64,000 nt of DNA from Patescibacteria group bacterium (lineage in GTDB: Bacteria; Patescibacteriota; Patescibacteriia; UBA1558; GWA2-36-10). The stretch spans positions 34,097 to 98,096 of the forward strand of contig JAHJQF010000001.1 in the NCBI GenBank assembly GCA_018819405.1, read 5' to 3'. A program made the position numbers and the translations under genes. The notes under the pieces are model-generated. The model was not told the DNA's origin. It searched no databases and worked only from the letters and a program-made list of their open reading frames with translations. Below, one piece after another: positions 11,669 to 37,741 of this stretch. Every line of letters begins with the position of its first letter. Positions within the stretch are counted from its first letter, which is position 1.

Positions 11669-11743
11669 TGGCTCCGGGAGGGGGATTCGAACCCACGACC
11701 AATTGATTAACAGTCAACTGCTCTACCACTGAGCTATCCCGGA
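11669..11743 (-). tRNA. tRNA-Asn(GTT): tRNA-Asn (anticodon GTT), CCA encoded
   Basis: Manual cloverleaf fold: acceptor TCCGGGA/TCCCGGA, D-arm GCTC-AGTGGTA-GAGC, anticodon stem GTTGA/TCAAT with loop cTGTTaa, T-loop TTCGAAT, 3' GCCA. Confidence 0.8.
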
Positions 11744-11982
11744 ATGAATTTTTTAATAAATTGTCTACCCCGATAACTTTTTAGTTGTTTTTCTCTGGTC
11801 AGGGCTTCTTTTCTTGTTTTAATTTTTTCAGAATATATGATTTCCCAATTTCCATCAAATTTAGATGTATACCCAGAAAATATTTTTTTATTGTGTATAG
11901 TCAAACGTTCTGATAGATTTTTTGTTTGACCAATATAAAATTTATTTACTGTTTTGTTATAAATAGCATAGACAGTATACAT
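11734..11982 (-). CDS. GIY-YIG domain nuclease (UPF0213-like, 82 aa); 3' end overlaps the tRNA-Asn 5' end by 10 nt
   Basis: YAIYNKTVNKFYIGQTKNLSERLTIHN...REKQLK is a GIY-YIG motif. Confidence 0.7.
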   Translation of the reverse strand: MYTVYAIYNKTVNKFYIGQTKNLSERLTIHNKKIFSGYTSKFDGNWEIIYSEKIKTRKEALTREKQLKSYRGRQFIKKFIPG

Positions 11983-12003
11983 ATCGCTTTTCTAAATTTT
12001 ATA

Positions 12004-12045
12004 AACTGCTCTGCCTCCGCCAGCTGGCGGAGAGCTATCCCGGAA
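12004..12045 (-). repeat. Degenerate duplicate of the tRNA-Asn 5' portion (aactgctct...gagctatcccggaa) containing a hairpin
   Basis: 14-nt exact match gagctatcccggaa (12032-12045 vs 11731-11744) plus an upstream aactgctct match. The intervening ctccgccagctggcggag is an inverted repeat. Confidence 0.6.
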
Positions 12046-12048
12046 AAA

Positions 12049-12300
12049 TTATAAACTATTTTTTATCAAATTTTCTTTGGCTGTTTTGCTCCAAGTCTTT
12101 ATTTCCGCTTCTCTTTTCATAGCCTTGCCAACCGAAGCAAACTCCTCCCAGTAAATTATTTTAACAGGCCTTCTTTGTTTTGTATATTTAGCACCTTGAC
12201 CACTATTATGTTTGAGCTCTCTATCTTTTAAATTTGTAGTATAGCCTGTATAGATTGTGTCATCACTGCAACGGGCAAGATAACAATAATATTTTTTCAT
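12049..12300 (-). CDS. GIY-YIG domain nuclease (second copy, 83 aa)
   Basis: YYCYLARCSDDTIYTGYTTNLKDRELKHN...REAEIKTW is a GIY-YIG motif. Confidence 0.7.
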   Translation of the reverse strand: MKKYYCYLARCSDDTIYTGYTTNLKDRELKHNSGQGAKYTKQRRPVKIIYWEEFASVGKAMKREAEIKTWSKTAKENLIKNSL

Positions 12301-12319
12301 TTGTTTTGCTCAGTTGAAT

Positions 12320-12396
12320 TGGTAGCAGGGGGGAGAATCGAACTCCCGACCTCAGGCTTATGAGTCCTACGCTCTAACCAACTGAGCTACCCTGCC
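12320..12396 (-). tRNA. tRNA-Met/Ile2(CAT): tRNA with CAT anticodon (elongator Met or Ile2/lysidine), CCA encoded
   Basis: GGCAGGGTAGCTCAGTTGGTTAGAGCG...loop CTCATAA...GGGAGTTCGATTCTCCC...CCCTGCTACCA. Cloverleaf with one A-G mismatch in the anticodon stem. Confidence 0.7.
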
Positions 12397-12416
12397 TAAG
12401 AATAGATATAAAATTT

Positions 12417-12492
12417 TGGTAGCGGGGGCCGGACTCGAACCGGCGACCTTCAGGTTATGGGCCTGACGAGCTGCCAACTGCTCTACCCCGCG
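12417..12492 (-). tRNA. tRNA-fMet(CAT): Initiator tRNA-fMet (CAT), CCA encoded
   Basis: CGCGGGGTAGAGCAG...GTCAGGCCCATAACCTGAAGGTCGCCGGTTCGAGTCCGGCCCCCGCTACCA is nearly identical in architecture to E. coli tRNA-fMet (recalled), including an unpaired C1. Confidence 0.8.
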
Positions 12493-12515
12493 TCGTGAAA
12501 TAAATATAATTTTGG

Positions 12516-12592
12516 TGGTCGGAGTGGTGGGACTTGAACCCACGACCTTACGCACCCCATGCGCACGCGCTAGCCAACTGCGCCACACCCCG
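12516..12592 (-). tRNA. tRNA-Pro(GGG): tRNA-Pro (anticodon GGG), CCA encoded
   Basis: Acceptor CGGGGTG/CACTCCG, D-arm GCGC-AGTTGGCTA-GCGC, anticodon stem TGCGC/GCGTA with loop aTGGGGt, T-arm GTGGG-TTCAAGT-CCCAC. Confidence 0.75.
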
Positions 12593-12640
12593 CAAAATTA
12601 TATACTAAAGTATAGAGGGTTATGGCACAATTTACAAGTT

Positions 12641-12717
12641 TGGTGGACCCAAGGAGACTTGAACTCCTGACCTCTTCCATGCCATGGAAGCGTTCTAGCC
12701 AACTGAACTATGGGCCC
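12641..12717 (-). tRNA. tRNA-Ala(GGC): tRNA-Ala (anticodon GGC) with G3-U70 identity pair, CCA encoded
   Basis: GGGCCCATAGTTCAGTTGGCTAGAACG-CTTCC-aTGGCat-GGAAG...TGGGTCCACCA; a G3:U70 pair is present. Confidence 0.8.
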
Positions 12718-12810
12718 TATAAATAATTGCTTAATTGTCTAATTGATTAATAGTTTAATTGTTCTTATCAATTATCCTATTATACTATCAATCTATATAG
12801 CCTATTAATT

Positions 12811-12897
12811 TGGTACCGAGGAGAGGAATCGAACCTCCACGGGGTTGCCCCCACTGGATTTTGAGTCCAGCGCGTCTACCAATTCCGCCACCTCGGC
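12811..12897 (-). tRNA. tRNA-Leu(CAA): tRNA-Leu (anticodon CAA), long variable arm, CCA encoded
   Basis: GCCGAGGTGGCGGAATTGGTAGACGCG-CTGGA-cTCAAaa-TCCAG-TGGGGGCAACCCCGT-GGAGGTTCGATTCCTCT-CCTCGGTACCA. Confidence 0.8.
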
Positions 12898-28921: not shown

Positions 28922-30796
28922 TTGAAGAGAGGTAGAATCGTGAAGAGAACATTCTTGATTCTGTTGGCTCTGATCATAACGATCAGTAGCAATGTCCTTG
29001 CACAAGGACCAATCAGCGGATTTTACTACCCCGCTGATGAGATGGTCAATGACTGGCAGTACTATGCCAGCAGAAGCTTCTACGTCGACAACAACCACCT
29101 CGGAGCAGACGTAGATCTGGCGGAGGGAGTGGCGATCAAGGCCATAGCTAGGGGTAAAATCGTCTACTACGCCGGGGCATCATCCTATGGTGCTCTAGTG
29201 GTAGCAATTGAACACGAACTCCCAGAGGAAATAACTTTCCTTGGTGCTACTGGCGAGCTGAGAACGACCAGGTACGTACTCTCAATCTATGGACATCTAC
29301 GAAAAAGTGCAGAGAGAGTAGGCGCAGAACTGCCTTGGCAATACGGAGATATTGTCCAACAGGGTGACATAATCGGTTATGTAAATAATAGTAGTCATCC
29401 TGATGGAATTGCTCCAGACCCAAATGGTGATGGACTTGAACATCTGCATCTGGGAATTCGTCTATCAAATGAAGCAACCGCCAAAGCCCAAGACGGGAGC
29501 CTGTGGCTCAGAGGTTACAATAACAACTCTGGGATGCAAATTTACTTTACTAATCCGATACCCCTGGTATCTGGATTGGCACAATTTGCACAGTCTCCTT
29601 CATGGCAGACCGAAAATGGAGTTTCGTTGTCCTTCATGAACACGTACAATGCCTCTACTGTGGATGATCATCCCCTTGGGATGCCTTGGCAAAATACAGA
29701 GTACGGCTCTATGTATGTTCATGAAGTTAACAACATGCTCATCCAGGACTTTCAAGATCTTCGTGATGAGGGTGGTCCAAGTAATGGTTACTACAACCCT
29801 TACACGGCCATCATTCGTTACGATGATCCCTGGATGAGCCGAGAAGCCCGCTTGCTCAAAGAGGGGTTCTGGGATGTTTGGATGAATCGTCGTGGCTGGA
29901 TCACCTTTGGTTTTCCCACTACAGACGAGGAACTTGATAGTGGAAGAGTCTGGCAGACATTCCGTCGGCCTGGCTTCAACTACCAGAACAATCCCAATGA
30001 CTACAAAGAGTTCCACTTCCGTTGGGACTCTAACACCCAGAGCCTTGATATCCTGGATCAATACTACAACCCCGTAATGTTTTCGGAGTTGGTGGTCGAA
30101 CCAGGAAGTCCCTCTACTATGTTGGAAATGAGTGGAAACAACTACTCTGCTTCCGACATAGCGGAGTTGAAAGAGGCCACTGGTAATAAAGAGGTTACTG
30201 GCGGTGGTTCTATGTCCGAAAACAACCCATTCAAAGAGATGGGACTTTTGGACAGTAGCACGAAATCCCTGACTAATGGCGTCTACCACTCTGGTATTAA
30301 GGTAGCCGCTTTTGGTGAAGCTTTCGAGCTTGTAGAAGGGAACAGCTACGGCGATTTCTATGCCGTAGTCAATGGATCCATGGTACTCATGGACTCTTTT
30401 ACCATGAACGGCAATATGGTTATCTATATTGACGATTCACCCCCAGTAGGAGAGCTCCAGTTTGGCTATTGGACCATTTCGCCCAATCCTGGCAACGTTG
30501 GACAATCGCTCCATCTTGAAGGAGAAGTTTACAACGTTGGAGGATCACCAGTCACTATCTCGGAAGTAAAGATAGAGCTCATTGACCCTAGCGGCAATGA
30601 AGCCTACCATTACTCCGAGTACAACGTTGTTTTGCAACCAGGAAGCGGCTGGTATCAGTGGATGGAATGCTATCCATATATGCCAGGCAATCACACTGTT
30701 CGCTTTCGCGGACTGGTTGATGGGCAATGGACGACATTCTCTACGCACACTGTGTATGTCGAGGGTAGTCAAATAGTCTCTCATCTAGTCGACTGA
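28922..30796 (+). CDS. Secreted M23 (LytM-type) zinc metallopeptidase with a large C-terminal extension; GC-rich, probably acquired
   Basis: HLGADVDLAEG...YGHL...GDIIGYVNNSSHPDG...EHLHLGI is an M23 signature. Signal peptide; probable true start is GTG at 28940 after RBS gaggtag. GC well above its neighbours. Confidence 0.8.
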   Translation: MKRGRIVKRTFLILLALIITISSNVLAQGPISGFYYPADEMVNDWQYYASRSFYVDNNHLGADVDLAEGVAIKAIARGKIVYYAGASSYGALVVAIEHELPEEITFLGATGELRTTRYVLSIYGHLRKSAERVGAELPWQYGDIVQQGDIIGYVNNSSHPDGIAPDPNGDGLEHLHLGIRLSNEATAKAQDGSLWLRGYNNNSGMQIYFTNPIPLVSGLAQFAQSPSWQTENGVSLSFMNTYNASTVDDHPLGMPWQNTEYGSMYVHEVNNMLIQDFQDLRDEGGPSNGYYNPYTAIIRYDDPWMSREARLLKEGFWDVWMNRRGWITFGFPTTDEELDSGRVWQTFRRPGFNYQNNPNDYKEFHFRWDSNTQSLDILDQYYNPVMFSELVVEPGSPSTMLEMSGNNYSASDIAELKEATGNKEVTGGGSMSENNPFKEMGLLDSSTKSLTNGVYHSGIKVAAFGEAFELVEGNSYGDFYAVVNGSMVLMDSFTMNGNMVIYIDDSPPVGELQFGYWTISPNPGNVGQSLHLEGEVYNVGGSPVTISEVKIELIDPSGNEAYHYSEYNVVLQPGSGWYQWMECYPYMPGNHTVRFRGLVDGQWTTFSTHTVYVEGSQIVSHLVD

Positions 30797-31259
30797 ATTC
30801 AGCTTTGAATTTATTTGTTTCAATATTTATTGCTTTTTCTGCTTCATTTATTTTGTTCTTCGTTTCTGATAAAATAACTTCCTTCAGTTTAATATTTTTG
30901 CTCTCCGAAACACTTTCTATTTTTTCGAGTAACAATTTTTCTGCTTCAGCAATCTTGTTCTCAGTTTCTAAAGATAATTTTTTTTCTTGACCACTGAAGG
31001 ATTTTAGTAATTTTTTATCATTTTCGTGACTAAATGAATCAATTGAGGAATCTACCTCATCTCTTATTTGATCTACCAAAGCACGCGTATCCTCGTTTAG
31101 CTTATTGATGCTTTCTTCTTGTTTATCAAGTTTTTTTCTAAGTGGGTTAAGATTAAAGAAAGAAAAGGCAACGCCAAATGCCAACAAAATGGTTACTGAT
31201 ATAGCTAAATAAGCTATGTTAGATTGAACTAATACTTCTGTTAAATTCACTACTTCCAT
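30741..31259 (-). CDS. Membrane-anchored coiled-coil protein, hypothetical; convergent 56-bp overlap with the M23 gene
   Basis: N-terminal TM followed by a heptad-rich Lys/Glu region. Confidence 0.4.
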   Translation of the reverse strand: MEVVNLTEVLVQSNIAYLAISVTILLAFGVAFSFFNLNPLRKKLDKQEESINKLNEDTRALVDQIRDEVDSSIDSFSHENDKKLLKSFSGQEKKLSLETENKIAEAEKLLLEKIESVSESKNIKLKEVILSETKNKINEAEKAINIETNKFKAEFSRLDERLFDYPRHTQCA

Positions 31260-31309
31260 ATATAATTTTTACTTCTCCTACAAACAGCTTATCTTAATTA
31301 CGATAACCA

Positions 31310-31345
31310 GTCAAACAACAAAAAACACCCAAATCGGGTGTTTTA
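31310..31345 (-). terminator. Rho-independent terminator (minus strand) immediately after the GC-rich element
   Basis: Minus-strand RNA is AAAACACCCGAUUUGGGUGUUUUUUGUUGUUUG: stem CACCC/GGGUG followed by a U-run. Confidence 0.65.
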
Positions 31346-31560
31346 AATTAACTAATTTTTTAAGACCATAGTGCTAGCACGAGTGCCCTTCGACTCGCTC
31401 ACTTCGTTCACTCGCTCAGGACATTCGATTCTATTGGTCGAATGGTCGGAGGTGCTGTAAGCACCGCAGATCATGAGTGAACTTTTGCAAAGCAAAAGCG
31501 AATCGAATGGCGGTGCACTCGGGTTAAGTAGCACCAACACGCAAATGTTATAAGGGTTTT
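31346..31560 (-). ncRNA. Candidate structured small RNA (about 215 nt, GC-rich, unknown class)
   Basis: GC-rich island in an AT-rich spacer with nested complementarity on the minus-strand RNA: GGUGC...GCACC, CUUUUGC-UUU-GCAAAAG, GGUGCU-UACA-AGCACC, long-range CAUUCGAUUC/GAAUCGAAUG and CGAGUGC/GCACUCG. Ends at its own terminator. Confidence 0.4.
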
Positions 31561-31683
31561 TGATGATTTTATCTATAACCTAATTTAGGTACGTGGGTCG
31601 TAGTAAAATGCGACAGTATAAAAGATTATTAAATATATTGTTTTAAAAAAAATGCCACTTTTCCGTGCCTAATAGTTTTACTT

Positions 31684-32274
31684 TTAATTTTCTACAATCA
31701 CCGATTGATTATCGGTTAAACGTCTTACTTTGCATTTATACTTATTTTCATAGTTTTTTATTTTTTCTTCAGTCTCTTTAGTATAGTGAGGGTAGATGAT
31801 AGTGTCAGTTAAATTCAAGCCTGTTAGATCTTCTAATTTGACGGTATTTATTTTTCTATCAAAATAATCCACGATGTTAATGTCTGGCCCTAAAACAACT
31901 CCGCCGCCACTGATACCTACAATAATTACTCCTCGATCAACTAGATGGGTGATAACTTTGTCAGCTCCGCTTTTTTTGAGATAATATAAAAGATAAAATG
32001 GATTGCCACCATTAATATAAATAACATCAAACTTTTTTAACTTATTTGGATTTTCAAACTCAATATCAAAAAATTTGACTTGCTTAAAACCCATATTCTC
32101 AAGCACCTGCTTTGCTAAAACCGCATGCTTATTTTCTTCTTTCCACTCTGCTGAGGCGGTGGTTATAATAGCCACAGACAAATTTTTAGATGCTTTAGGT
32201 AACAAAGTTAGCAACTTCTTTTTTAAAGTCTTATTTTTTTGAAACCCATAGGATGATAATATAATGTTTACCAT
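31684..32274 (-). CDS. S51-family peptidase E-like (type 1 glutamine amidotransferase-like fold) protein
   Basis: VIYINGGNPFYLL...GISGGGVVLG motifs. Confidence 0.6.
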   Translation of the reverse strand: MVNIILSSYGFQKNKTLKKKLLTLLPKASKNLSVAIITTASAEWKEENKHAVLAKQVLENMGFKQVKFFDIEFENPNKLKKFDVIYINGGNPFYLLYYLKKSGADKVITHLVDRGVIIVGISGGGVVLGPDINIVDYFDRKINTVKLEDLTGLNLTDTIIYPHYTKETEEKIKNYENKYKCKVRRLTDNQSVIVEN

Positions 32275-33080: not shown

Positions 33081-34127
33081 TTACAACTTGGATGTCTCAT
33101 GGATTCTCTCCACGAGTGTTGGAATGTATTTCTTCTTACACTCGCCACAAAGCGAGGTGCCGGAAACACATTCCTGATACATCCGCGTTGTTGCGTCGTA
33201 AGGTTGTAAAACCTCGGCGATCTTAAAGAAAGAACAATTATGTGGGTTACCACCTTTCCGACGCTGTTCTTCTGGAGTCGAACGACCACCGGAAAAACTT
33301 CGTCGCAGTTTACGCTCAATCTGCTCGCGAGTCTCGTCTAGAAGAATGAGTGATTTTGAGTTCTTCACGCTCATTCTCTGTCCAGGATCTTCCAAGCTTG
33401 GAAGAAGCAGGCGATACGAGTAACTCGGCAACGGAAGCTTAAGTTGACGAGCAATTATCTTCGTAGCTTCCGCGTGTGTGATCTGGTGGATGTCCGATAG
33501 GACAAGAGTCGGACGATTCGGAAAAAGTGTTGTCGGCAAAAGAAACGCTGCGGCTGTGATGGCAGGAACACGAAGCGTAGTAACAGAAACACCCTCGTCC
33601 CAACCATATAGTTGCAAAACCTTTCTTGCCGACAGACACGCTCCTGAACGATTGTCGAGAACTTGGAGTTCCCGACAATCTTGGTCAGAGAAACTCACTG
33701 AAGCATCTGGTAACGAATCACCTATAAACTTCAGATATGTCTCTCCAAACCTCGCCATCTCAATCTTTGCGTCATTGGCACTTAGAAGCCGATCCGCCTC
33801 GTACCCAGCAAACACGAAAATTGGTTGACCACCCTGTTGGACGAGCCAATACAATTCTCGCATTAGTGTGAGATGACCGAGGTGGAATGTCGCACCAGGA
33901 CGCATACCAACTAACACCGAGAACTGCTTTCCAATTACCATTGCTTTGAAGACAGGCAGTGGGTTTTGAAAAGCCCAAACACTGACACGAGCGAAGCCTT
34001 CCCAAATATCGGTAAAATTGTCGGTCAACGCCCCCGCTATTGTCTCGAGAGAGAATTGTTTAACTACGTTGGTTGCTTCAGCAGCAGCCAATATTGCTCT
34101 TTCTCCCAGCCAGTTTTCAAGCGCCAT
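33081..34127 (-). CDS. Divergent TrpRS-like class I aminoacyl-tRNA synthetase paralog with a C-terminal C-x21-C-x6-C-x2-C (putative Fe-S) cluster
   Basis: HIGH-like GMRPGATFHLGH, KMSKS-like SVKNSKSL, and C-terminal NCSFF...QECVSGTSLCGECKKK. Has an N-terminal extension of about 70 aa. GC-rich. Confidence 0.65.
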   Translation of the reverse strand: MALENWLGERAILAAAEATNVVKQFSLETIAGALTDNFTDIWEGFARVSVWAFQNPLPVFKAMVIGKQFSVLVGMRPGATFHLGHLTLMRELYWLVQQGGQPIFVFAGYEADRLLSANDAKIEMARFGETYLKFIGDSLPDASVSFSDQDCRELQVLDNRSGACLSARKVLQLYGWDEGVSVTTLRVPAITAAAFLLPTTLFPNRPTLVLSDIHQITHAEATKIIARQLKLPLPSYSYRLLLPSLEDPGQRMSVKNSKSLILLDETREQIERKLRRSFSGGRSTPEEQRRKGGNPHNCSFFKIAEVLQPYDATTRMYQECVSGTSLCGECKKKYIPTLVERIHETSKL

Positions 34128-34966
34128 TAGTGTCTCCTTTACTTGATTACGCGTGGAGAAAATGAATCATCTCCTCCAAGCGACTTTCCAGGTTGTTGTC
34201 TCTGACATACTGCTCGGCTTTCTGCATGTAGAATGCGGGAAAGTCCGGCATACCCCCATGAAGACTACTTCCCAGCGCCCAAAAACGAGCAACCGCCGCG
34301 AGAGTACTTTCATGCAACTGCTCTTCGGAAAGTGCATGATGGTATCGAAACATATCCCCGCTTTGTGTTACGATCCCCGCTTTCAGAAAAGACAAGGTTG
34401 TCGCCTCAGCCATCCTTACCCACAACTGCTGAAAGGATGGAGAGATGTAGTAACGCAGAAAATAACTGCGATACCACGGACATAGATGGAAGCGCGCGAG
34501 TACGGAGTCTGCCACCAAGTCTACACTTGTGGCAAAAATTCTTTCTCGCTTTACAGCCATCGCTGCCGCAAACGGCCCGATGAACGCCCCACCGACTTCC
34601 ATAACCACATCCCTATCTTTTTGCGAAGCCATGAACATAACATGAGGGTTATATACTTTGCCGGCGAAGTATCCTCCGAAAGTTTTCTGTCTACCATCAC
34701 TCACAAAATCATTTCTATTAAGTAAGTAGATGGTGACCGGATAACCCTCGAAGGACGATTGAATCCTTTGAATAGTGGTTGGTTGCGTGTGGATAAAGAG
34801 AAGATCAAGGTCACTCTCGGGATTTTGTTGGTTCAGCACGAAGCTGCCGTAGCACACCCAAAAGCTCCCGTCACCTTCTTGTGCTCCGATTTCGCTCGCA
34901 AGACATGCAACCGCTCGCGCAACAAAGTCGAAGTTTTCTTGCTTCATGAATGTTCTGTACACGTGC

Positions 34967-37101
<2,135 letters not shown>

Positions 37102-37411: not shown

Positions 37412-37661
37412 ATGTTTTAATACGCTTTTCAAGTTTAGCCCGTAAATAAGCGCAGCGAATTTTACGGGCCGTGTGCACTACCCGCCTGCCACGGCTTCGC
37501 CGAAGGCGATGGCGGGCAGGGACCACCCACCGCCACAAATATCTAATTTAAATGAAGGCGGGGTCCCGCTACGCGGGATATGCGAACCTTCCTAGTGACC
37601 AACTATGTTTAGCCCGTAGCCAGACAAGCTATGCTTGGATGTGCTATGGGCCGACCTCTCC
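37412..37661. other. GC-rich hairpin-rich about 250-bp element abutting the tRNA-Ser 5' end, bounded by an 11-bp direct repeat of the tRNA 5' end
   Basis: cgacctctcca at 37403-37413 and 37651-37661. Hairpins GCCCGTAAA-14-TTTACGGGC, CCTGCC...GGCAGG, TCCCGC-tac-GCGGGA; gtttagcccgta is repeated. Confidence 0.4.
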
Positions 37662-37741
37662 AAAATATGCCTAAACAGTATAGATTTTATCATAATTTTA
37701 GTCAATACAAAAACCCCCGCCAAAAAGCGAGGGTCTGTAAA

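Follow-up and report, generated by a model that had tools for sequence, protein, structure and literature searches.

REPINs, the closest described counterparts of the element analyzed here, are inverted pairs of REP sequences with a spacer, mobilized by RAYT transposases (PMC3116915, PMC3337134). A second point of reference is the premise that genuine ncRNAs are enriched among the structured, GC-rich spacers of AT-rich genomes (PMC6429828, PMC8723152). We analyzed a spacer in the window (the whole stretch of 64,000 nucleotides from a Patescibacteria (CPR) genome), where a GC-rich imperfect palindrome lies between two genes (Table 1). Judged by its flanking proteins, the window belongs to a 1.04-Mb contig of a Parcubacteria-like CPR MAG.

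The spacer between the S51 gene and the 172-aa gene spans 424 nt on the minus strand. Its 178-nt core has a GC content of 50.6%, compared to 27.8% in the remaining spacer. The preliminary description had reported a GC-rich, highly structured segment between two minus-strand genes with a terminator directly after it, and sequence, GC content, and folding all bear this out. Next to the spacer, the 3′ ends of the convergent 172-aa gene (-) and an M23 peptidase ORF (+) overlap by 56 nt (window 30741-30796).

Table 1. Features of the palindromic spacer and its surroundings (window coordinates unless a locus is named).
Feature	Position	Strand	Basis
Upstream gene, Peptidase_S51/type-1 glutamine amidotransferase-like	31684-32274	-	Pfam PF03575, E = 1e-26
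Weak hairpin and T8 just past the S51 stop codon	31645-31669	-	Sequence; about -5 kcal/mol
Weak promoter-like TAGATA-17 nt-TATAAC	31547-31575	-	By eye only; 4/6 and 5/6 match
Whole feature, possible transcript of ~225 nt (palindromic core, AT-rich linker, terminator)	31321-31545	-	Sequence; fold z = -4.86
GC-rich imperfect palindrome (core)	31368-31545	none	Both-strand folding; GC contrast
Outer closing stem, 5′ strand (GUGUUGGUGCUA), pairs with 31369-31380	31529-31540	-	MFE fold
5′ arm, degraded inverted copy (complement) of module and flank	31469-31521	-	MFE pairing, by-eye alignment, inverted repeats
Central hairpin GGUGCU-UAC-AGCACC	31451-31465	-	Fold and inverted-repeat search
Central hairpin CAUUCGA-CCAAUAGAA-UCGAAUG	31422-31444	-	Fold and inverted-repeat search
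G·A hairpin module GUCCU-GA-GC-GA-GU-GA-AC-[GAA]-GU-GA-GC-GA-G(U)C-GA-AGGGC	31385-31422	-	RNAfold; matches elsewhere
Outer closing stem, 3′ strand (GUGCUAGCACUA)	31369-31380	-	MFE fold
Intrinsic terminator, 9-bp stem, A-run before, U6-rich tail after	31316-31344	-	Terminator scan, 10 pairs, 4 G-C
Downstream gene, 172-aa coiled-coil/membrane near-orphan	30741-31259	-	Only 2 homologues, ~40% identity, among 5.8 billion proteins
GTCATTGCGAG family loci: L016, L026, L027, L030, L031, L033, L034, L049, L057, L060, L065, L069	e.g., L049:1018-1100		

Folding of positions 31310-31560 gave a minimum free energy (MFE) of -81.9 kcal/mol versus -58.5 ± 4.8 kcal/mol in 200 dinucleotide shuffles (z = -4.86), none of which folded as well (0/200). 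In both the MFE and the centroid structure, the whole 5′ arm (31540-31473) pairs with the whole 3′ arm (31414-31371), and the predicted shape is a long interrupted rod with an apical multiloop that carries two small hairpins. The helices first listed for this spacer could all be located. The GGUGC…GCACC complementarity lies within 31535-31511 of the minus strand, an inverted-repeat search placed the CUUUUGC-UUU-GCAAAAG hairpin at 31498-31482, and the two sides of the long-range pair CGAGUGC/GCACUCG are at 31521-31515 and 31385-31379. The GGUGCU/AGCACC hairpin is present at 31465-31451, with a loop of three nucleotides (UAC) and not the four (UACA) originally given. Since the fold is well beyond that of dinucleotide shuffles and all listed helices were found, we take the observation to be real and non-random.

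Not all of these helices can form together. The long-range pair CAUUCGAUUC/GAAUCGAAUG is indeed 10 nt long and 100% complementary (31509-31500 and 31431-31422), but the MFE structure does not contain it, and enforcing this 10-bp helix yields -57.5 compared to -67.1 kcal/mol for the core, i.e., 9.6 kcal/mol worse. The 3′ strand of the CAUUCGA-CCAAUAGAA-UCGAAUG hairpin can pair with 31509-31500 instead, and CAUUCGA is present twice in the element, such that either copy can pair with UCGAAUG. The omission of the long-range helix from the MFE and its energetic penalty thus indicate that the pairings in the preliminary description are in part mutually exclusive alternatives. Folded by strand, the core reaches -67.1 kcal/mol (z = -4.6) on the minus strand and -66.2 kcal/mol (z = -3.9) on the plus strand. 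Because both strands fold equally well, the structure belongs to an imperfect palindrome at the DNA level and not to one transcript.

The terminator, AAAACACCC-GAUUU-GGGUGUUUU at 31344-31322 followed by U6-G-UU-G-UUU, has a hairpin energy of -13.1 kcal/mol. It begins 25 nt past the last helix of the element, and the downstream gene starts 62 nt beyond it. The terminator scan confirmed the canonical terminator proposed earlier, except that the tail has six U and not seven. An A-run ahead of the stem, together with the U6-rich tail, makes the terminator potentially bidirectional. At the other end, the promoter-like TAGATA-17-TATAAC is placed 7 nt before the first helix, and a putative RNA start would fall at ~31540; a sigma-70 consensus scan found no promoter on the minus strand near 31545-31600, in a group (CPR) whose promoters are poorly known. 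The hairpin and T8 behind S51 were not called by the terminator scan. They would make a poor terminator, so read-through from S51 into the element is plausible.

The element was originally left without a class, and the searches that we ran agree: a check against Rfam covariance models matched no Rfam family, tRNA, or tmRNA to the core, with 6S, SRP, RNase P, tmRNA, riboswitches, and ribozymes among the families covered. Rfam 15 at the gathering threshold over the whole window returned seven tRNAs elsewhere and 0 matches in the element, and at E ≤ 10 over 31200-31750, it returned weak terminator look-alikes outside the core only. ARAGORN likewise placed 7 tRNAs elsewhere in the window and no tRNA or tmRNA at 31300-31560. 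The nearest resemblance among known classes is to 6S RNA (SsrS), which at ~180 nt is similar in length and is also a long interrupted double-stranded rod; like it, the element may be transcribed on its own. 6S RNA consists of a closing stem, a large central bubble, and a terminal stem, whereas the element has an apical multiloop and no central bubble; unlike 6S RNA, it is not conserved in relatives, and 6S models did not match it even at E ≤ 10. We rejected 6S membership on the continuous arm-to-arm pairing without central bubble in the MFE and centroid structures. On reading the sequence, we also rejected hammerhead, twister, and HDV-type cores, the T-box, and a tRNA-like T-arm, the last because UUCGAUU is not enclosed by a G53-C61-type stem. 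A retron and a TnpB/IscB guide RNA were dismissed because neither an RT nor a TnpB/IscB gene lies nearby.

The window also holds other tRNA-rich and GC-rich stretches. Six tRNA genes (Asn, Met, Met, Pro, Ala, and Leu) form a cluster at window 11669-12897 (-), and a Logan contig of the same organism (L083) ends inside tRNA-Asn, at window position 11711. A further GC-rich block lies at window 37412-37700 (-) between a PEP-synthase terminator and tRNA-Ser(GGA). This block has no Rfam match and includes a second copy of the tRNA 5′ start GGAGAGGTCG at ~37660, a repeat ACGGGCTAAAC at ~37617 and ~37443, and GC-rich hairpins (GCCTTCGGCGAAGCC).

For comparison with relatives, we used the S51-linked loci of six of them (L003/4, L005/6, L007/8, L009/10, L081, and L082; S51 identity 78-86%). 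The upstream side of S51 is syntenic in several relatives, but downstream synteny is not conserved, and the element is absent downstream of S51 in 6/6 of these related Patescibacteria loci. The position is taken instead by tRNAs, a GIY-YIG ORF, other GC-rich blocks, or different genes, and these differing contents indicate that it is a variable insertion hotspot. The element is also absent upstream of the two homologues of the downstream gene (three loci, L078-L080; ~40% identity), which are preceded by tRNA genes or unrelated sequence. The full element was recovered elsewhere only as identical copies from the same organism.

Several of these loci have features of their own. Downstream of S51, L007:3640-4190 carries a tRNA-Ser, then a 77-aa GIY-YIG-like ORF and a second, partial copy of the 5′ end of that tRNA (repeat CCTCTTGGGTACCTCTCC), an arrangement that looks like a homing-endonuclease insertion at a tRNA. 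L005:3600-3760 and L009:3200-3450 have other, unrelated GC-rich self-complementary blocks directly after S51, e.g., GGCAGGCGAGCGAGGGCGTGGCGG…CCGCCACGCCCGAGCCGAGCCGAAGCG; GC-rich palindromic islands seem to recur at the hotspot downstream of S51. In L078:790-1010, a tRNA-like gene (GGAGAGG…CCTCTCCGCCA) is, by eye, interrupted in its T-arm region; the insert, also read by eye, is a complete second tRNA-like sequence (GCGGAGGG…CCCTCCGC) flanked by the inverted repeat GCACGCCCCGCACCAGG/CCTGGTGCGGGGTG.

The preliminary description had proposed a dedicated structured small RNA, and had named lack of conservation in relatives as evidence that would speak against it. Such conservation is absent at the six S51 loci and the three downstream-gene loci: the element is missing from L003-L010, L081, L082, and L078-L080. 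A species- or genus-specific trans-acting sRNA, with a promoter start at ~31540, a ~170-nt rod, a linker, and a Rho-independent terminator, and perhaps exapted from a palindromic insertion, would account for the very stable fold, for the canonical terminator 25 nt past the last helix, and for the by-eye TAGATA-17-TATAAC 7 nt ahead of the first helix. The contrast of 50.6% to 27.8% GC is also a signature used for finding ncRNAs in AT-rich genomes (PMC6429828), and the G·A module described below lies on the strand that is co-transcribed. These points are set against an element that is not conserved in any relative reached, a fold that lacks strand specificity, a minus strand on which the promoter scan was empty, and the lack of any Rfam relative; the sole conserved part is a generic module that shows no strand bias elsewhere. 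We therefore regard such an sRNA as unlikely. The claim of a dedicated small-RNA gene is not supported, given its absence in all relatives examined, a fold that is not strand-specific, and relatives elsewhere that share the module only.

The order of structured domain, terminator, and gene start 62 nt later could also be that of a cis-regulatory leader, in which a riboswitch- or attenuator-like domain would control the 172-aa gene through the terminator and the CAUUCGA duplicates would provide exclusive pairings. Alternative helices do exist, with two CAUUCGA copies for one UCGAAUG. However, the element contains no GGGUG-like competitor for CACCC, hence no antiterminator, and the competing helix rearranges the element only internally, at a cost of 9.6 kcal/mol. 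Furthermore, tRNA genes or unrelated sequence lie upstream of the two homologues of the 172-aa gene, no cis-regulatory family in Rfam matches, and the 172-aa gene itself is a near-orphan of unknown function. Without an antiterminator and without association with homologues of the downstream gene, we consider a leader or riboswitch role very unlikely, the least probable of the readings weighed here.

The anatomy of the palindrome offers a different account. The 3′ arm consists of an intact G·A module with its closing helix (31422-31385), followed by GCACUCG, and the MFE pairs 31521-31473 with 31414-31379. Aligned with each other, the 5′ arm reads CGAGUGC…CCAUUCGAUUCGCU…GUUCACUC and the complement of the 3′ arm CGAGUGC-CCUUCGACUCGCU…GUUCACUC; several transitions set the 5′ arm apart from this complement, and the mini-hairpin CUUUUGC-UUU-GCAAAAG (31482-31498) takes the place of its apex. 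The spacer between the arms is ~46 nt (31521-31469 versus 31422-31379), or ~64 nt between the innermost paired helices. The architecture is that of a REP/REPIN, in which two inverted copies of a short palindromic unit flank a spacer and together form a long hairpin.

The likeness to REP, BIME, and REPIN sequences extends to the context. Like them, the element is an intergenic imperfect palindrome of two inverted ~35-nt hairpin units and a spacer, is GC-richer than its surroundings, stands after a gene and beside a terminator, and folds equally well on both strands. The differences are equally clear. REPINs occur in tens to hundreds of copies, whereas blastn and pattern searches of ~77 kb of the 1.04-Mb contig (the window and 13-kb extensions) found no further copy of the element or the module, leaving one copy in the stretch inspected. 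No target-site duplication was seen, and no RAYT or other transposase was noticed among those ORFs of the window and the extensions that we inspected. The sequence is unrelated to REPINs, one unit is heavily decayed, and the long spacer (~64 nt) has hairpins of its own. REPIN-like inverted pairs of the module are also rare among the other module-bearing loci. On copy number, two Logan contigs of the same organism both end within the module and overlap there by 30 nt (k-1), and another contig of the same assembly breaks alike at a tRNA gene; this suggests, as a hint and not as proof, that module k-mers occur in more than one context in that sample.

The reading that we favor, with about even confidence, is that the element is a GC-rich imperfect palindrome of the REP/REPIN/MITE kind, single-copy and specific to its lineage, that occupies an intergenic insertion hotspot of this Patescibacteria (CPR) genome. 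An inserted repeat-type element is preferred to a conserved sRNA gene because the element is absent from relatives while its best-kept part is found in unrelated microbes. It would have arisen by insertion or by inverted duplication in the hotspot. The 5′ arm is a decayed inverted copy of the module, such that the arms zip into a long rod on either strand. The S51 gene itself ends without a convincing terminator, so the element is probably part of the S51 mRNA as its 3′ UTR, and the read-through transcript would end at the strong terminator at 31344-31322. By analogy with REP sequences, the rod and terminator would then act as a passive 3′ structure that protects the transcript or reinforces termination. 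A dedicated trans-acting role of the element is, most likely, lacking.

An inserted palindrome of this kind has to be distinguished from a non-functional scar, i.e., a horizontally acquired GC-richer fragment or a decayed, self-complementary remnant of coding sequence. Points in its favor are the variable content of the hotspot in relatives, a 62-aa ORF that runs across the element, and the 45-53% GC of the genes at 28922-30796 and 33081-37086 in a window of 37% GC. Blocks of ~30% and of ~47-50% GC form a mosaic in this genome. However, the 62-aa ORF has no homologue (0 among 5.8 billion proteins), z scores of -4 to -5 on both strands are unexpected for a random fragment, and the module is intact and near-identical to copies elsewhere. 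We judge a scar to be quite improbable, somewhat more so than an sRNA. The two GC-rich blocks themselves include an M23 peptidase, two tRNA-synt_1b (TrpRS/TyrRS-like) paralogues, and their neighbors. The other genes of the genome have ~25-35% GC, and this mosaic composition suggests that the 45-53% GC blocks were horizontally acquired.

The part of the element that has counterparts in other organisms is the G·A hairpin module, which lies on the co-transcribed strand. RNAfold predicts for its 34-38 nt, at -8.6 kcal/mol, a series of 2-bp Watson-Crick steps alternating with 2x2 tandem G·A loops and closed off by a C(GAA)G cap. No such hairpin is predicted for the complementary strand, which reaches only -2.5 kcal/mol. 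Stable mini-hairpins with a GNA triloop and sheared tandem G·A pairs are known, e.g., those of the GCGAAGC type. The module resembles them in its C(GAA)G apex and in its 2-bp Watson-Crick steps with 5′-GA/3′-AG tandem mismatches. Unlike GCGAAGC-type hairpins, it is much longer, periodic (three tandem G·A steps), and conserved in sequence across phyla.

In the element, the module comprises an exact 21-mer at 31414-31394, the core CGAGUGAACGAAGUGAGCGAG, and the closing helix GUCCU/AGGGC, and the similarity of other loci to the element is confined to 31385-31422. Among GTDB species genomes, the 18-mer CGAGTGAACGAAGTGAGC occurs at 64 loci, compared to ~17 expected by chance under uniform base composition, and the 21-mer ending in GAG at least 26 times, compared to ~0.3 expected. 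The matches to the core come from many bacterial phyla, Halobacteriales, and one viral contig. The closest match, at 35/36 positions, is a Peribacteria (CPR) locus, L064. Scanning metagenomes for a 20-mer of the 3′ arm yielded one match, on an unrelated GC-rich contig (L012); this match extends to 33/34 nt and again lies inside a long palindrome. In a plasmid collection, a distant blastn search gave only 28-nt matches at chance level, and four patterns run against viral contigs gave one module match only, at the apex of a terminator-like hairpin (L077). Module-bearing loci had no Rfam match, and a literature search by sequence strings and hairpin type turned up no described biological element with the module sequence.

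Across CPR, other bacterial phyla, haloarchaea, and the viral contig, the core is near-identical while the closing helix changes freely. By locus, the latter is AUUGC/GCAAU, AUCGC/GCGAU, AUUCC/GGAAU, AUCCC/GGGAU, CCGGCGG/CCGCCGG, or GCAGC/GCUGC. Unrelated closing helices around an invariant core amount to covariation. By crude gene calls, the module is oriented with the neighboring ORF in 23 cases and against it in 19, without bias, as is expected of DNA-level repeats.

Some of the settings in which the core was found are worth recording. In the Halobacteriales loci L024, L025, L032, L040, L042, L046, L056, L059, L061, L063, L070, and L073-L075, and on the viral contig (L077:1575-1625), the 21-nt G·A core caps GC stems, which often have a T-run behind them and are then terminator-like. 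Haloarchaeal spacers have many degenerate GAGCGAAGCGAG/GAACGGAGTGAGCGA variants near the 21-nt core. In the Candidatus Peribacteria locus (L064:90-300, -), an intact tRNA-Leu(UAG) has, ~75 nt behind it, a partial duplicate of itself, which consists of the 3′ half of the T-stem, the 3′ strand of the acceptor, and CCA, with the T-loop replaced by the G·A module.

About 23 of the module loci form a repeat family, with the palindromic organization GTCATTGCGAG-[module]-GGCAATC-loop-GATTGCTTCG-linker-CTCGCAATGAC over 72-110 nt, which we defined from L016-L069 as a covariance model (R1). The family is multi-copy, its members at times arranged in tandem; 8 kb of L027 contain six copies, and there are several loci per genome. 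Genomes that carry it include those of Anaerolineales, WOR-3, Latescibacterota, Elusimicrobia, Rickettsiales, and Syntrophales. Within it, co-variation of T6C and A31G favors the local G·A hairpin over a long-range stem. The family has no Rfam 15 match, and we found no paper on it by sequence strings. It shares with the window element an identical 18-21-nt core (CGAGUGAACGAAGUGAGCGAG), a short Watson-Crick closing helix, an intergenic position, and a palindromic form. In contrast, the element lacks the GTCAT…ATGAC ends and the GCAATC/GATTGC helix of the family, and it is 178 nt long and single-copy. Run against the window, R1 scored 16.6 bits (E = 0.21) at 31371-31422 only, compared to 64-91 bits for members. 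As the model recognizes only the module in the element, the element is not a member of the GTCATTGCGAG…CTCGCAATGAC family and shares the module alone.

These matches raise another reading, which we hold tentatively and consider about as unlikely as an sRNA: the true object of interest would be the 21-38-nt G·A module, as a functional motif or the footprint of a mobile insert, and not the 178-nt palindrome. The module could be an undescribed functional nucleic-acid motif, e.g., a hairpin cap that binds a protein or resists nucleases. Alternatively, a tiny mobile insert may have left it as a footprint, with hairpin loops (terminator apices, the tRNA T-loop remnant, or repeat elements) as its targets. 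If either were true, the element would be a CPR case of a palindromized module, possibly exapted as a stable RNA end.

In an AT-rich CPR genome, the combination of strong folding, high GC, and a terminator is insufficient evidence of an sRNA, since inserted palindromes leave the same signature. The locus is thus a worked example of how a palindrome can be separated from an sRNA by both-strand folding, synteny, and a search for shared modules. The module and the GTCATTGCGAG repeat family are widespread across bacterial phyla and haloarchaea and absent from Rfam. Should a function or mobility be demonstrated for them, many spurious ORFs and GC-rich intergenic islands in MAGs would be accounted for. 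The module, with its conservation across domains, and the undescribed repeat family are more intriguing leads than the element itself.
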